From Oscillospiraceae bacterium (GTDB taxonomy: Bacteria > Bacillota > Clostridia > Oscillospirales > CAG-272): DNA of 64,000 nucleotides. Position numbers and translations under genes: made by a program. Under the pieces are notes generated by a model that was not told the origin of the DNA, ran no database searches, and saw only the letters and a list, made by a program, of their open reading frames with translations. The stretch is taken from assembly GCA_015063685.1 (NCBI GenBank), contig SVTR01000014.1, positions 2,717 to 66,716 of the forward strand, given 5' to 3'. Numbering within the stretch: position 1 is the first letter of the stretch; each line of letters starts with the position of its first letter. Below, piece after piece: positions 10,301 through 64,000 of the stretch.

Positions 10301-10544
10301 CTATTTTTTTGAACTTCATATGAGGGCTTTTTCGATCAGAAACGCTTTTTCTTTGATTGGTGACTCAGTTTTTGAGTCACCAATCTTTCTTCCATATCCT
10401 TTTGCGGCTGCTTCACCCAAGCGCTTTTGCCCCCATTCTTGACCATAGGCCGATTTGGAAGCGATGGAGTTAAGAGTGGTCCAAAGCGATCAAATCGGAG
10501 TGAAAACCACTACATATAGTTTTTTGGAGATAAAATACACTATA

Positions 10545-10705
10545 GGGCATCTCTAAATACTTAGTGTGCGGCGAGATGCGAGGGATTTTTTCGTCAGACT
10601 AAACAAAAATCTGCGCGCATAGTCGTCCCTATGCGAAAGAATTTTGTGACGTATGACGGAAAAAGCACCGTCATATCGGCGTGCGATGAGTTTTTAGAGA
10701 TGCCC
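10545..10705 (+). mobile_element. MITE family 1, copy A (161 bp)
   Basis: 13-bp perfect TIR GGGCATCTCTAAA / TTTAGAGATGCCC, flanked by TATA on both sides. By eye it differs from copy C at 2 positions. Confidence 0.85.
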
Positions 10706-10731
10706 TATACTTGCGCTTAGGGTAATAGAGA

Positions 10732-13908: not shown

Positions 13909-13966
13909 ATTAACAAAAGGGAACCTCTAAAAACTCCATTGATGAGCAAGCCGCAAGGGAGTTTTT
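13909..13966. mobile_element. MITE family 2, minimal 58-bp copy (E)
   Basis: GGGAACCTCTAAAAACTC ... GAGTTTTTAGAGGTGACC inverted ends, flanked by AAAA on both sides. Confidence 0.7.
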
Positions 13967-13984
13967 AGAGGTGACCAAAAAAGC

Positions 13985-14033: not shown

Positions 14034-14194
14034 GGGCATCTCTAAATACTCAGCGTGCGGCGAGATGCGAGGGATTTTTTCGTCAGACTAAACAAAAATC
14101 TGCACGCATAGTTGACCCTATGCGAAAGAATTTTGTGACGTATGACGGAAAAAGCACCGCTATATCGGCGTGCGATGAGTTTTTAGAGATGCCC
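14034..14194 (+). mobile_element. MITE family 1, copy B (161 bp)
   Basis: Same TIRs as copy A, flanked by TTAT on both sides. Its end lies 6 nt from the murE stop codon. Same subfamily as copy D (central hairpin loop TTGACC). Confidence 0.85.
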
Positions 14195-14200
14195 TTATGA

Positions 14201-16164: not shown

Positions 16165-16193
16165 ATTATAGCATACACCGAGGGGAATGTCAA
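16165..16193 (-). promoter_or_regulatory. Perfect consensus sigma-A promoter (hypothetical gene-murE)
   Basis: Minus strand TTGACA (16193..16188), 17 nt, TATAAT (16170..16165). It lies 12 nt from the edge of repeat array 1. Confidence 0.6.
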
Positions 16194-16204
16194 TTGATGG
16201 ATCA

Positions 16205-16469
16205 TAAATTGTTGTTTAGCGTGGGCTTACTATGAACCCGTAGGGGCGAACTGCGTTCGCCCGCCGTTCTCCAAAAGCCTTTGCTTATCAATATACTTTT
16301 TATTACGGGCGAACACAGTTCGCCCCTACGACCACGTTGGTCAGAAAACCGTAAACAACAATTTATCCGCCCAACTACCCATTGCGGGATGCGGTACGCA
16401 CAGGATGCACTACCCCGAGCGTTGGCCGCGGCACGGCCGCCCCCACCGCAGGTGGTAAACAACAATTTA
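16205..16469 (+). repeat. Mosaic repeat array 1: TIR/REP-doublet element (module I, 16205..16365) plus half-palindrome module II
   Basis: Boundaries are AAATTGTTGTTT (16206) and AAACAACAATTT (16353, 16457), with TA at the outer flanks. Internal REP doublet 16240..16329 (GTAG-GGGCGAAC-TGC-GTTCGCCC ... GGGCGAAC-ACA-GTTCGCCC-CTAC). Confidence 0.85.
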
Positions 16470-16494: not shown

Positions 16495-16523
16495 TTGCAA
16501 AATCTCGCCAATTATCGTATAAT
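16495..16523 (+). promoter_or_regulatory. Near-consensus sigma-A promoter for the GNAT gene
   Basis: TTGCAA (16495..16500), 17 nt, TATAAT (16518..16523). Confidence 0.55.
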
Positions 16524-16555: not shown

Positions 16556-17134
16556 ATGAAAAAAAACAGTATTTACCAGCTATTTTCCCATATTCCTACC
16601 CTGGAGACTCCGCGTTTGACCCTACGCGGCATGCGCGTCTCAGATGCTGAAGACATGTTTGCCTATGCGCAGCATGAGCCCGTTACCCGCTTTCTCACCT
16701 GGACGCCTCATCCCAATATCAAGCACACCAAAGAATATTTGACCTATGTGGGTCAGCGATATCGCACGGGGGATTTCTTTGACTGGGCGGTCGTCTGTAA
16801 GAAAGACAGCCGCATGATCGGCACCTGCGGATTTACGTCCTTTAATTTCTCCTCGGATTCAGCTGAGATCGGATACGTGATAAATCCCGACTACCAAGGA
16901 CAGGGTCTTGCCACCGAAGCGGTGCAAGAGGTCATCCGCTTTGGATTTGAGAATCTGTCACTCCATCGCATTGAAGCCAAGTTCATGCAAGAAAATACCC
17001 GCTCCAGGCGGCTCATGGAGCGGGTGGGTATGCAATTTGAAGGGTATGCGCGGGAATCCATGAAAATCAAAGGTGAATACCGCACCATCGGAAGGTGCGG
17101 AATCCTCAAGAGAGAGTGGGAGGAAGCAAGGTAA
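16556..17134 (+). CDS. GNAT-family N-acetyltransferase (RimJ/RimL-like)
   Basis: 192 aa with acetyl-CoA motif QGQGLATEA and LHRIEAKF. GGGAGG SD. The TAA stop (17132..17134) is shared with the first bases of repeat array 2. Confidence 0.85.
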   Translation: MKKNSIYQLFSHIPTLETPRLTLRGMRVSDAEDMFAYAQHEPVTRFLTWTPHPNIKHTKEYLTYVGQRYRTGDFFDWAVVCKKDSRMIGTCGFTSFNFSSDSAEIGYVINPDYQGQGLATEAVQEVIRFGFENLSLHRIEAKFMQENTRSRRLMERVGMQFEGYARESMKIKGEYRTIGRCGILKREWEEAR

Positions 17135-17469
17135 ATGTTGTTGCCGGCCGTGCCGGCTGCCAAAGCTCGGGGGAGTATATCATATGCCTACTGCATCACG
17201 CGATGGGTGGTTAGGCAGCTAAATTGTTGTTTAGCGGAGGTTTAATGAAAACCCGTAGGGGCGAACTGCGTTCGCCCGCCGTCCCCCAAAAGCCTTTGCT
17301 TATCAATATACTTTTTATTACGGGCGAACACAGTTCGCCCCTACGACCATGTTGCTCAGAAAACCGTAAACAACAATTTATCTGACCAACTGCCCATCGC
17401 GGTATGTGGCCTGCATGGGTTGAATAACCCCGAGCCAAAGCCCCACCGCGGGTGGTAAACAACAATTTA
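17132..17469. repeat. Mosaic repeat array 2: II' (inverted) - module I (17220..17380) - II palindromic composite
   Basis: Boundary motifs at 17133 (degenerate AAATGTTGTTG), 17221, 17368 and 17457. REP doublet 17255..17344. The left and right arms are diverged inverted copies of each other. Confidence 0.85.
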
Positions 17470-29074: not shown

Positions 29075-29155
29075 GGGAACCTCTAAAAACTCTATTGGCG
29101 AGCGAGCCGCAAGGGAGTTTTTCGTCAGATGATACAATGGTTTCGCCGTCAAGTT
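29075..29155 (+). mobile_element. MITE family 2, truncated copy (F)
   Basis: The left TIR GGGAACCTCTAAAAACTC and the internal TTTTTCGTCAGATGATACAAT ... CCGTCAAG match copy G. The right TIR is missing. Confidence 0.6.
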
Positions 29156-38138: not shown

Positions 38139-38643
38139 TAAATTGTTGTTTGCGTGGGCTTACTATGAACCCGTAGGGGCGAACTGCGTTCGCCCGCCGT
38201 TCCCCAAAAGCCTTTGCTTATCAATATACTTTTTATTACGGGCGAACACAGTTCGCCCCTACGACCATGTTGCTCAGAAAACCGCAAACAACAATTTTGT
38301 TGACCAACGCTCCATCGTGGTATGTGGTACGCATAGGATGCACTACCCCGAGCGGTGGCAGGCGGCACAGCCGCCAAACAACAATTTATTTGACCGCCAT
38401 CTCTTGCGGAAAGACGGTTGGCAAGAAGCAACCTTCTTCGGCATTTTGGGGCGGGCACTGCCCGCAAACAACAGGGCATCTCTAAATACTCAGTGTGCGG
38501 CGAGATGCGAGGGATTTTTTCGTCAGACTAAACAAAAATCTGCGCGCATAGTCGTCCCTATGCGAAAGAATTTTGTGACGTATGACGGAAAAATCACCGT
38601 CATATCGGCGTGCGATGAGTTTTTAGAGATGCCCAACAATTTA
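38139..38643 (+). repeat. Mosaic repeat array 3: module I (38139..38297) + II + III, interrupted by MITE copy C
   Basis: Boundary motifs AAATTGTTGTTT at 38140 and AAACAACAATTT at 38286, 38376 and 38466 (exactly 90-bp phasing). REP doublet 38173..38262. The last motif is split by the MITE, with an AACA duplication. Confidence 0.85.
38474..38634 (+). mobile_element. MITE family 1, copy C (161 bp), nested in array 3
   Basis: Same TIRs, flanked by AACA on both sides. Its end lies 6 nt from the stop codon of the flippase gene. Confidence 0.85.
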
Positions 38644-45605: not shown

Positions 45606-45628
45606 AATGCCTCCTGAAATAGACTTTA

Positions 45629-45790
45629 GGGAACCTCTAAAAACTCTATTGATGAAAGAGCCGTGAAGAAGTTTTTCGTCAGATGATACAATTTTTCGAA
45701 CGCGTAGTGGCGCTACGCGAAGAAAAATATGTGAAATATGACGGGAAAGTTACCACGGATTCTCCGTCAAGAGAGTTTTTAGAGGTGACC
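45629..45790 (+). mobile_element. MITE family 2, full copy G (162 bp)
   Basis: GGGAACCTCTAAAAACTC ... GAGTTTTTAGAGGTGACC, flanked by TTTA on both sides. It lies 23 nt upstream of the rel start codon. Confidence 0.8.
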
Positions 45791-45794
45791 TTTA

Positions 45795-54858: not shown

Positions 54859-54920
54859 CACAAATACGGAGGAAGCACTTGTATGCTTCCTCCGTATTCG
54901 GTATTTTGAGATAACCTACA

Positions 54921-55081
54921 GGGCATCTCTAAAAACTCATCGCACGTCGATATGACGGTGCTTTTTCCGTCATACGTCACAAAATTCTTTCGCATAGGGT
55001 CAACTATGCGTGCAGATTTTTGTTTAGTCTGACGAAAAAATCTCTCGCATCTCGCCGCACGCTGAGTATTTAGAGATGCCC
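54921..55081 (-). mobile_element. MITE family 1, copy D (161 bp, inverted relative to A-C)
   Basis: Same TIRs, flanked by TACA on both sides. By eye it has ~4 differences from the reverse complement of copy B. Its end lies 6 nt from the LRR lipoprotein stop. Confidence 0.85.
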
Positions 55082-55087
55082 TACAAT

Positions 55088-59877: not shown

Positions 59878-60396
59878 TTATTTATTTTTTAATATTTTTT
59901 CGCGGGACTTGATCTGTTGCTTATATCCTATGTGCTGTGCCGCGCATGCAACCACACCGTACACGATCATACACACCACCATACCCAACAGGAAGTATCC
60001 CTGCGACGTATCTACATACGGCGCATCGCCGTTGCCGCCATGACAAAACAGCACGCCCAACCAAAAGCCCGCGCCGCTGATGAAAGACACAAAATGAAAA
60101 GCAAGTGCCAACATCAACTGCAAGACAAGTACGGGAGTCAAAGCTAATATCGTTGCCAACATATCCACGCGCTTTTGTTTATAGGCAATACGGCCCGAGG
60201 TCACACAAATGCTCCCCGACGAAATCAATAGACATATCATCGACTCTATAATGCGGCAAACCAATGCATCAGGAAACAGCTTCCACAGTAGCGATTGGAG
60301 CACTATGTCGGCAATCGTTCCGAGAAACAGGCCCAAAACAACGGCCAAAAAATATTCTCCCATCATTGGAAATATTTCTTTTTTCTCGATTTTCAT
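59878..60396 (-). CDS. Hypothetical polytopic membrane protein (172 aa), low GC
   Basis: 4-5 predicted TM helices. 29 nt upstream of thrS and 15 nt downstream of the RAYT gene. No family recognised. Confidence 0.55.
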   Translation of the reverse strand: MKIEKKEIFPMMGEYFLAVVLGLFLGTIADIVLQSLLWKLFPDALVCRIIESMICLLISSGSICVTSGRIAYKQKRVDMLATILALTPVLVLQLMLALAFHFVSFISGAGFWLGVLFCHGGNGDAPYVDTSQGYFLLGMVVCMIVYGVVACAAQHIGYKQQIKSREKILKNK

Positions 60397-60411: not shown

Positions 60412-60936
60412 CTAATTACGCACTGATTTTTTGTCATCATAATACCACGCACGTGGATTATTGATAATATATTTTCTTGTTTCATAGAGATCGTCTTGAT
60501 TCCGAATCATATGATCGAAATAACTTCGTTGCCAAAAAGATTTGTTATACGGCTCGTATATCCCTTCCTTTACACCGCGAATATATTCATTGGTTGTCAT
60601 AGTCTTGAACCAATCTACGACGTCCTGTAGGGGCGACCCTGTGTGGTCGCCCGTAAAAAACAGAATAGCGTGAATATGATCGGGCATAATAACATATTCA
60701 TCAATTTCCGTGTTCGGAAACTTGTTTTCTATTTCAAGCAACCATTTTTCAATCATCCGATCAGGCTTGTTCGGGCGACCACGCAGGGTCGCCCCTACGG
60801 AATGATCCCACACGATTTCGCCAAATAAGGATTGTCTGTTATGAGTACATATCGTAATAAAGTAGGATCCTTGCTTTGAGTAATCGAGTCCTTTTACTCG
60901 CATCCGTTTTCTTTGCGGATATTGAGGGTTCTCCAT
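60412..60936 (-). CDS. REP-associated tyrosine transposase (RAYT; Y1 HUH, IS200-like superfamily)
   Basis: YFITICT beta-strand, HUH motif PDHIHAIL and catalytic Tyr context WQRSYFDHMIRN (compare the RAYT pattern RRYWEHxIRD). GGAGGGA SD before the ATG at 60936. The upstream part of the track ORF only reads through REP copies. Confidence 0.8.
   Translation of the reverse strand: MENPQYPQRKRMRVKGLDYSKQGSYFITICTHNRQSLFGEIVWDHSVGATLRGRPNKPDRMIEKWLLEIENKFPNTEIDEYVIMPDHIHAILFFTGDHTGSPLQDVVDWFKTMTTNEYIRGVKEGIYEPYNKSFWQRSYFDHMIRNQDDLYETRKYIINNPRAWYYDDKKSVRN
60627..60798. repeat. REP doublet embedded in-frame in the RAYT coding sequence
   Basis: GTAG-GGGCGACC-CTGTGT-GGTCGCCC on the plus strand (60627..60652, encodes GDHTGSPLQ) and its inverted partner at 60773..60798 (encodes VGATLRGRP). 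They are 25 of 26 complementary to each other. Confidence 0.85.
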
Positions 60937-60996: not shown

Positions 60997-61107
60997 GTAG
61001 GGGCGACCCTGTGTGGTCGCCCGCAAAAACAAACGCGAAATAGTATTATAGCATACGATAATTATCACAAGGGTTGAACACGGGCGACCACGCAGGGTCG
61101 CCCCTAC
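60997..61107. repeat. REP doublet between the T-box terminator and the RAYT start
   Basis: 60997..61022 is identical to 60627..60652, and 61082..61107 is identical to 60773..60798. The 59-nt AT-rich spacer contains TGCTATAAT on the minus strand (61053..61045). Confidence 0.85.
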
Positions 61108-63878: not shown

Positions 63879-64000
63879 TAAATTGTTGTTTAGCGGCCAC
63901 CTGCGGTGGGGCTTTGGCTCGGGGGAGTATATCATATGCCTACCGCATCACGCGATGAGTGGTTAGGTAGATAAATTGTTGTTTGCGTGGGCTTACTATG
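63879..64000. repeat. Mosaic repeat array 4 (II' module plus the start of module I; runs off the window)
   Basis: AAATTGTTGTTT at 63880 and 63973. The interval matches the inverted module II of array 2, and the sequence after 63973 matches the start of module I in array 3. Confidence 0.8.

Follow-up and report, generated by a model that had tools for sequence, protein, structure and literature searches.

A REP hairpin pair inside a MITE-like shell with conserved inverted ends in intergenic arrays of a Clostridia genome

An element of 161 bp, here called module I, recurs in the 64,000-nucleotide stretch of DNA analysed here (the window) and carries two transposition signatures at once, namely terminal inverted repeats (TIRs) with TA flanks and an inverted pair of GTAG-tagged REP hairpins (a REPIN). 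This raises the question of which machinery moves it and whether one class of repeat rides inside the other. The movement of REPs and REPINs is poorly understood, and the enzymes of several bacterial MITE families are unknown. Module I offers a small natural substrate that unites the two kinds of signal physically, although comparison of relatives can separate them, and it bears on whether a REPIN can spread as the cargo of a TIR element and whether RAYTs exchange hairpins in place.

Module I is a genuine composite, consisting of a REP hairpin pair inside a MITE-like shell with conserved inverted ends. An initial annotation placed it at 16205, 17220, 38139 and from 63972 onward, and all four copies were recovered with the layout that it described. 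Its coordinates were exact for two copies, but the third ends at 38298 and not at 38297. The copies and the parts of the first are as follows.

16205..16365, no strand assigned: module I copy 1 (array A1), assigned by motif, REP pattern and fold
16205-16218: left end of copy 1, TA and terminal repeat
16240-16243: GTAG of copy 1
16244-16262: left REP hairpin of copy 1
16263-16306: AT-rich spacer of copy 1
16307-16325: right REP hairpin of copy 1
16326-16329: CTAC of copy 1
16352-16365: right end of copy 1, terminal repeat and TA
17220..17380, no strand assigned: module I copy 2 (array A2), with the second left-arm variant (AGCGGAGGTTTAATGAAAACCC)
38139..38298, no strand assigned: module I copy 3 (array A3)

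The fourth copy is cut by the end of the window and only its first 29 nt (63972-64000) are present. Each module begins with TA, a TIR of 13-14 bp, about 22 nt, a GTAG-tagged hairpin and a 44-nt AT-rich spacer, followed by a mirror half of hairpin-CTAC, about 22 nt, TIR and TA. The sequence GTAG-GGGCGAAC-TGC-GTTCGCCC and its inverted partner were present in all three full copies, and GGGCGAAC-NNN-GTTCGCCC matched six times in the window, compared to 0.03 matches expected. Between GTAG and CTAC the three full copies have one position different each, and the single core difference reported earlier between arrays 2 and 3 was found again. The subterminal arms, also described as different, occur as two left-arm variants. 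Module I is non-coding and is crossed by spurious ORFs only. As single-stranded DNA it has a predicted folding energy of -44.1 kcal/mol (z = -9.05), with the two REPs predicted to pair with each other across the 44-nt spacer. No Rfam family matched at gathering score; permissive E-values returned only generic miRNA-hairpin models far below their thresholds, and these were set aside as chance matches.

The ends of module I belong to a motif that is shared with other modules. The sequence (TA)AATTGTTGTTT has 11 exact matches in the window relative to 1.2 expected, an expectation that allows up to one mismatch, and its count was reached in none of 100 shuffles. It bounds three module types (I, II and III) across four arrays, and every copy in the window lies inside the arrays. 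The motif is also written TAAATTGTTGTTT and bounds modules other than I. The TIR is perfect over 13-14 bp, with an imperfect extension to about 17-20 bp (TAAATTGTTGTTTAGCGGAG), and in all arrays seen the plus-oriented motif copies come first and the minus-oriented copies last. Thirty ends from seven genomes, picked by an 11-mer, were compared. TA lies directly outside 24 of them, relative to a TA frequency of 3.8% in the window, and the other six have TG, CA, AA, TT or GA (read outward). A purine occupies position -3 in 27 ends, and conservation, partial at positions 12-16, fades between 12 and 20. The TA flanks proposed in the initial annotation are therefore present at most ends, but the right inner flank of copy 3 in array A3 reads TT on the plus strand (AA outward). 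No direct repeat longer than TA was found at the flanks of any element examined. We infer from these flanks that a TA would be duplicated at insertion, although the flanking TA could instead belong to the element itself.

The motif is also where similarity stops. A protein search with the spurious ORF through module I gave three matches, two of which are from the same population as the window. In one (L250), a solo module I lies in unique DNA with a phosphoesterase gene on one side and a TetR gene on the other. Similarity there ends exactly at TAAATTG...CAATTTA; the other (L251) contains reversed module II plus module I and ends at the same motif. Over approximately 90 kb of this population (the 64-kb window plus about 26 kb), all five GAAC-type doublets were inside module I with the same arms and motif. 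The amplified unit in this population is the motif-bounded module and not the doublet alone. A metagenome scan for AATTGTTGTTT-N72-100-AATTGTTGTTT, a pattern without module sequence, returned 120 loci, all of them unrelated coding tandem repeats. Viral contigs gave only chance matches to the motif plus GTAGGG, and a BLAST search with array A2 against plasmid and phage collections gave no match.

The structure is larger than the module I described in the initial annotation and includes modules II and III, and array 2 begins at 17132. The remaining parts of the arrays are listed below.

16366..16469, plus strand: module II of array A1, GC-rich hairpins and then the motif AAACAACAATTTA (16457-16469)
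17132..17219, minus strand: left layer of array A2, a degenerate outer motif TAAATGTTGTTG (17132-17143) and then reversed module II
17381..17469, plus strand: module II of array A2 and outer motif
38299..38388, plus strand: module II of array A3, hairpin variant GGCGGC-ACA-GCCGCC and then the motif
38389..38643, plus strand: module III (38389-38465, hairpin GCGGGC-ACT-GCCCGC) and a split motif, made up of AAACAACA (38466-38473), the D1 MITE (38474-38634) and AACAATTTA (38635-38643)
63879..64000, no strand assigned: array A4, cut by the window end, with outer motif 63879-63891, reversed module II, inner motif 63972-63984 and the start of module I

A full array runs motif+, reversed II, motif+, I, motif-, II, motif-, which makes A2 (17132-17469) in its entirety a palindrome of 338 nt with a folding energy of -91.4 kcal/mol (z = -9.4). 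The units bounded by motif copies are I, I+II, II'+I, II'+I+II and I+II+III, where the prime denotes reversal. Module II measures about 80-105 bp and occurs in both orientations, to the right of module I in arrays 1-3 and reversed to its left in arrays 2 and 4. It carries the motif in direct and not inverted orientation, so simple insertion of a whole element does not explain it. Modules II and III have GC-rich hairpins with 3-nt loops beside the motif, the stems of which differ among copies with complementarity kept (CCACC/GGTGG, GGCGGC/GCCGCC, GCCGGC/GCCGGC and GCGGGC/GCCCGC). The split motif of A3 contains D1, an unrelated MITE within a motif copy, with AACA as its duplicated target. A MurJ-like gene adjoins array A3.

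Every array is intergenic and exactly occupies the space left by the neighbouring genes or promoters. Array A1 is flanked by divergent promoter-like sites (16193-16165 on the minus strand and 16495-16523 on the plus strand). In A2, the TAA of TAAATGTTGTTG is the stop codon of a GNAT gene, and the convergent MATE gene uses the terminal TTA (17467-17469) as its stop codon. In relatives, the terminal TAA is also the stop codon of GNAT in L278 and of a dehydrogenase gene in L289. The present GNAT stop in the window is secondary, since the stop of the closest relative lies upstream of the shared junction, and the case that such TAA stops would be evidence for insertion into stop codons is weakened. 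When the array and one TA are removed from A2, both convergent genes lose their present stop codons, which indicates that the insertion was not a simple TA event or that the site changed later.

Both signatures are real, as the initial annotation stated, and they can be traced to separable repeat classes. Two features of the window are needed here.

60412..60936, minus strand: RAYT-like Y1/HUH transposase gene (174 aa; HUH motif PDHIHAIL; catalytic Tyr region RSYFDHMIRN)
60997..61107, no strand assigned: free REP doublet, armless and lacking the terminal motif, upstream of the RAYT-like gene

The RAYT-like ORF matches Pfam Y1_Tnp (E = 2.8e-9) and NCBIfam REP_Tyr_transpos (71.6 bits, E = 5.9e-20, short of the curated cut-off, which is 80). 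The gene contains two in-frame GACC-type REPs; the GTAG-tagged hairpin at 60627-60652 encodes GDHTGSPLQ and the hairpin-CTAC at 60773-60798 encodes VGATLRGRP. The free doublet reads GTAG-GGGCGACC-CTGTGT-GGTCGCCC, a spacer, and GGGCGACC-ACGCAG-GGTCGCCC-CTAC. The initial annotation had proposed looking for a RAYT flanked by GAAC-type REPs, and to this the answer is a qualified yes. A RAYT-like gene is present in the window, but its REPs are of the GACC type with a 6-nt loop (GGGCGACC) relative to GAAC with a 3-nt loop in module I, none of them is near the terminal motif, and the gene is not flanked by the motif.

Cores without TIRs are not confined to that doublet. A free GAAC doublet (L120) lies directly after a gene, without arms or motif, and reads GTAG-GGGCGAAC-TGT-GTTCGCCC, 57 nt, and GGGCGAAC-ACA-GTTCGCCC-CTAC. 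It is part of the same MAG (RGIG3848, GCA_017456905.1) as L259, which comes from a sibling species closely related to the window organism. When one genome per species was scanned for GTAGGGGCGAACNNNGTTCGCCC, at least 119 loci were found; among the matches listed, most were in Clostridia, Oscillospiraceae and Ruminococcus, with some in distant phyla, and none had the terminal motif beside the REP core. Motif pairs without REP cores also occur, both as modules II and III and as elements named X in L275, L278, L287 and L289. Motif-free cores together with core-free motif pairs indicate that two separable repeat classes have been combined in module I.

Relatives of the window were reached via the GNAT protein encoded between A1 and A2 (79-85% identity in global pairwise alignment and 81-86% by BLASTP). 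The gene order GNAT-MATE-(small ORF)-2-Hacid_dh is kept in all relatives examined, with MurE-132aa upstream of GNAT in L258 and L277. GNAT was considered as composite-transposon cargo between A1 and A2, and this was rejected on account of that gene order, which is conserved with or without arrays. The gap between GNAT and MATE differs as follows.

Window, 332 bp: array A2, with II reversed, I and II
L278, 342 bp: array with II reversed, X and II
L274, 198 bp: hairpin doublet without the motif
L262, 176 bp: solo module I
L277, 8 bp: empty
L258, 2 bp: empty
L289, 2 bp: empty

The site upstream of GNAT (the A1 position) is likewise empty in L258, L277 and L289. Both A1 and A2 therefore show the presence and absence at orthologous sites that is expected of IS630/Tc1-type MITEs, at a divergence of about 10-15% (about 80-94% protein identity) that is too far for base-exact comparison with the empty-site species. 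The TAAATTTA in the empty site of L277 was rejected both as the footprint of an excision and as paired stop codons, since the MATE stop is 8 nt further on. In L262, L275 and L278 the A1 and A2 sites are filled by different family members. The arrays of L278 and L287 run motif+, II homologue, motif+, central X, motif-, II homologue. X has the same ends and non-GTAG hairpins (GGGGAACTTTTT..AAAAAGTTCCCC), differs between these two strains, and occurs solo at other sites in L275 and L289. Two elements in L262 have arms homologous to those of module I, one with GGCC and GACC hairpins that have 6-nt loops and the other with GGAGCGG hairpins. Between species, the hairpins have been exchanged on arms and a spacer that are conserved. 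The motif-bounded cargo types are GAAC REPs, GACC/GGCC REPs, GGAGCGG hairpins and non-GTAG X hairpins. The same ends with differing hairpin cargo indicate that the ends are the constant of the family and the cargo is variable. The REPIN-bearing architecture is kept in at least two species, and so module I is not a one-off chimera.

We favour, at a probability of about 0.5, a MITE family that is specific to this lineage, has TA at most of its flanks, is moved in trans by a TIR-recognising transposase and carries the REPIN as a passenger. Module I would be a non-coding, non-autonomous member of such a family in uncultured ruminant-gut Clostridia, defined by AATTGTTGTTT ends that are usually flanked by TA, with a variable interior whose cargo in this genome is a REPIN made of two inverted GTAG-tagged REP hairpins of the RAYT (Y1/HUH) kind. 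A transposase supplied in trans would read the double-stranded terminal repeats and could move any stretch bounded by a plus and a minus motif. Insertion would probably be at TA, in an IS630/Tc1-like manner, and the arrays would consist of family members nested within or abutting one another, each array side having two or three end-motifs. RAYT activity would account for the origin and turnover of the hairpins and for the type differences among copies and species, and not for the spread of the module.

We infer the class of transposase and its action in trans. The copied unit extends from motif to motif, the ends are conserved with free interiors, and the distance from end to hairpin varies; these three features together suggest an enzyme that reads the terminal repeats as double-stranded DNA and can use any plus/minus pair of them, and the TA flanks suggest that it is IS630/Tc1-like. 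The probability is held at this level because no transposase with these ends was seen, the TA may be the element's own, module II has direct motifs and the hairpins covary. The IS630-family transposase with these ends that the initial annotation envisaged was found neither in the window nor in the Pfam lists of related contigs. No transposase gene bounded by the motif was found in the window, and among the genes called on those contigs Y1_Tnp was the only transposase family listed by Pfam. The covariation of the motif-adjacent hairpins is what a structure-reading HUH enzyme would select.

That last point leads to the possibility of a single machinery, in which a Y1/HUH transposase would move the whole module in single-stranded form, as an extended REPIN or a repeat of the TIRYT type, with the terminal motif as the cleavage or target sequence. 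Units consisting of module, hairpin and AAACAACAATTTA would insert 3' of a resident ...TTTA, giving head-to-tail layers on both strands, and the right-half modules of the arrays do all follow ...ATTTA and end in ...ATTTA. A RAYT-like gene within the window, invariant GTAG tags with covarying stems, compensatory changes that keep the motif-abutting hairpins paired, and the lack of any visible duplication beyond TA are all consistent with it. IS200/IS605-type enzymes, however, cut at fixed offsets from the hairpin (as in IS608), whereas the distance from hairpin to element end ranges here from about 13 to 35 nt across module types. In modules II and III the nearest hairpin lies 0-1 nt from the motif; the spacing is wider in X elements, at about 6-8 nt, and in module I, where GTAG is 22 nt away, and this variation argues against cleavage positioned by the hairpin. 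The REP doublets at the RAYT locus of the window are bare and motif-free, as is the free GAAC doublet of the sibling species, and the GAAC REPs of module I, with their 3-nt loop, are not the type tied to the RAYT seen here. RAYT-like genes with long TIRs and derived repeat families were described by Di Nocera et al. 2013 (PMC3733652), which lends this alternative a precedent, but overall we consider it unlikely.

A role for both systems in one element can also be proposed, in which the shell is a long-lived scaffold and its GTAG-tagged hairpins are exchanged in place by RAYTs. The basis is that the same arms and a related spacer enclose GAAC hairpins with 3-nt loops here and either GGCC and GACC hairpins with 6-nt loops or GGAGCGG hairpins in L262, and such exchange on conserved arms points to a RAYT-type activity that may act inside the module. 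These hairpin types would correspond to different RAYT subfamilies whose own genes carry matching in-frame hairpins. RAYT homologues in L123 (Candidatus Alloscillospira) and L121 do contain in-frame hairpins of the module I REP type, which in L123 read GGGCGAAC-TGT/ACA-GTTCGCCC (GAAC with a 3-nt loop). We put this forward tentatively, as a doubtful reading. If it were true, RAYTs would swap hairpins one at a time at GTAG sites already in place (exchange at the level of the REP), one small element would serve two unrelated transposition systems as a substrate, and the RAYT reaction would be directly testable on a defined natural substrate.

The passenger model must also be weighed against the arrays being a mosaic similar to BIMEs that is not currently mobile, one that is old, has been reshuffled by homologous recombination or gene conversion, and is kept for a host function such as transcript 3'-end protection, insulation of convergent or divergent genes, or binding of nucleoid proteins. 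The arrays resemble enterobacterial BIMEs as mosaic intergenic hairpin arrays with fixed relative orientation and short conserved linkers, and their exact fit between genes and promoters agrees with a host role. In E. coli, the BIMEs bound by IHF have an AT-rich central spacer, as module I does. Homologous module II scaffolds are present at the same GNAT-MATE site in two non-sister species, the central module is mosaic, differing between strains of one species (L278 and L287), and a structural-variant junction lies at the module I end in four assemblies (L003, L005, L008 and L010). In BIMEs, however, REPs are the repeating unit, whereas the present modules (80-160 bp) are heterogeneous, with a 13-bp non-palindromic motif as their boundary, and the arrays are large palindromes. 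The regular BIME-type alternation of REPs with linkers was not found; GTAG REPs occur in module I only, and the arrays are nested palindromes. Solo elements with sharp ends occur at unrelated loci (L250, L262 and L289), and the sites of the closest relatives are empty. Copies within the genome are near-identical while the orthologous scaffolds are about 75% identical, which indicates recent copying. The hairpins are not followed by terminator-like T-runs and match no Rfam family. Taken together, a static mosaic appears quite improbable.

Use of the motif as a site-specific recombination site, with the modules between copies as exchangeable mini-cassettes, would fit the different central modules found between the same inner motif pair (the REPIN here and X in L278 and L287), but no recombinase is linked to the arrays and inverted sites would invert, not exchange, the DNA between them, making this very improbable. 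The integron attC core site has the consensus GTTRRRY; by direct reading against consensus sequences, the motif fits neither attC nor a dif/Xer site.

Several known systems come close to these elements. REPIN and REP-RAYT systems were reportedly described by Nunvar in 2010, Bertels and Rainey in 2011 and Ton-Hoang in 2012. The central part of module I is structurally a REPIN, with GTAG-tagged, GC-rich hairpins in an inverted pair around a short spacer and in an extragenic location, but what has been amplified is not the doublet itself. As in REP-RAYT systems, the window also contains a Y1/HUH RAYT-like gene whose own locus has REPs. Unlike in a REPIN, the doublet has non-palindromic arms of about 22 nt and sits inside a shell with conserved TIRs that is also found with non-REP cargo, and, unlike in REP-RAYT systems, the REP type of the module differs from that of the RAYT locus in the window and the host is a member of the Clostridia. 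REP-RAYT systems are also treated by Di Nocera et al. 2013 (PMC3733652), who described degenerate GTAG units joined to unrelated stem-loops in hundreds of copies in Pseudomonas, as well as RAYT-like genes with flanking long terminal inverted repeats (TIRtrons). Composites of this general sort are thus already known in Pseudomonas. In TIRtrons the repeats flank the tyrosine-transposase gene, whereas the RAYT-like gene here has no flanking motif.

The structure of the shell is that of a TA-flanked Correia/RUP-type MITE, with a putative TA duplication. As with Correia/NEMIS elements of Neisseria and the IS630-type RUP elements of Streptococcus pneumoniae, the elements are 100-300 bp long and non-coding, have TIRs and TA flanks, are intergenic and often abut gene ends, and fold into a long hairpin (predicted here). 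As with Correia elements, no cognate transposase has been identified. They differ in their unrelated end sequences, the REPIN interior and the occurrence of the end-motif two or three times per array side. The last of these resembles the IR/DR ends of Tc1-family elements such as Sleeping Beauty (PMC5224488), which have TA flanks and two direct copies of an end motif per long inverted repeat. Those elements, unlike the present ones, are eukaryotic, about 1.6 kb long and have known binding sites, and the likeness is an analogy only. What appears to be a new form of composite is a REPIN housed in a separate TIR family, in Clostridia, whose conserved arms carry exchanged hairpin types. No description of such a REPIN-in-TIR element was found in the literature searched, which is not proof of absence.

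The elements also affect the genome around them in that intergenic gaps are filled exactly, stop codons are supplied, a structural variant is marked and metagenome assemblies are broken. Array density is about one per 16 kb (four arrays in 64 kb), and the very high genomic copy number suggested in the initial annotation is an extrapolation from it. Other assemblies break repeatedly inside arrays, including at A4. The junction of the L003 type is either the product of recombination between copies or a repeat-induced misjoin, and a single base difference in its right arm suggests that a further genomic copy may exist. The two module copies beyond the window, in L250 and L251, lie on other contigs of the same population.

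The RAYT-like gene (window 60412-60936, minus strand), which encodes a Y1/HUH transposase of 174 aa, contains a REP doublet in frame, with one REP on each side of the HUH motif. The loci compared for this feature were the gene itself, its protein homologues P0124-P0243, and L288, L020, L121 and L123. The peptides VGATL[RC]GRP and GDHxGSPL were kept in most of the 120 homologues (P0124-P0243), down to approximately 50% identity. Across 121 sequences, the covariation of both REP-encoded peptide sites matches the requirement for a hairpin stem: the residue pairing T..G/D..S, corresponding to a GACC stem, was found in 80, A..G/G..P (GGCC stem) in eight, H..V/A..A (GCAC stem) in three, and N..V/E..S (GAAC stem) in one. 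No description of an in-frame REP doublet with covarying peptide sites in a RAYT-like gene was found in the literature. Immediately downstream is a 172-aa ORF (window 59878-60396, minus strand) for which Pfam gave no match; gene calls for a further strain (L252) include this pair as well.

Another hairpin-doublet repeat, GGGGAACTTTTT-NN-AAAAAGTTCCCC and its variants, flanks an AT-rich spacer in loci of related species:

L274, 708-905
L275, 474-719
L278, 6575-6743
L287, 742-931
L289, 7909-8090

This doublet was found within the same terminal motif pair that bounds module I, the approximately 160-bp REP doublet element, and also, in L274, free of it. The existence of bounded and free forms is a parallel to the REP situation.

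Two MITE families were also evident in the window. D1, a classical family whose elements are approximately 165 bp long, has terminal repeats GGGCATCTCTAAATACTC and clearly duplicates 4 bp of its target (TATA, TTAT, AACA, TGTA), and D3 has the related ends GGGAACCTCTAAAAACTC, includes a 59-bp short form, and shows 4-bp duplications of AAAA (13915/13978) and TTTA (45624/45794):

10544-10709, 14034-14199, 38474-38634 and 54920-55082, D1 copies
13919-13977, 29075-29138 and 45628-45793, D3 copies

In two separate arrays, one in the window (38470) and one in L251 (same population), D1 has inserted at an identical point of the AATTGTTGTTT motif, with the duplication TGTT/AACA in both cases.

Array A1 fits exactly between two divergent promoter-like sites:

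16165-16193, minus strand, perfect TTGACA-17-TATAAT, for the 132-aa gene adjoining murE
16495-16523, plus strand, TTGCAA-17-TATAAT, for the GNAT gene

Among the related loci L278-L283, the strains share an identical GNAT protein and vary in the genes upstream of it, in the stretch that starts from the SASA-domain gene, with one unannotated gene (332 or 336 aa) in some and two (426 and 355 aa) in others, none of which had a significant Pfam match.

Identity between the window and four independent assemblies (L003, L005, L008 and L010) breaks off at 17379/17380, precisely where module I of array 2 finishes on its right side; the junction is a misjoin or else a rearrangement mediated by the repeat. 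The continuation in L010 differs from that in the other three, all of which enter one common locus elsewhere, encoding a 314-aa 2-hydroxyacid dehydrogenase, followed in L005 by PPIase and RNase III-like genes.
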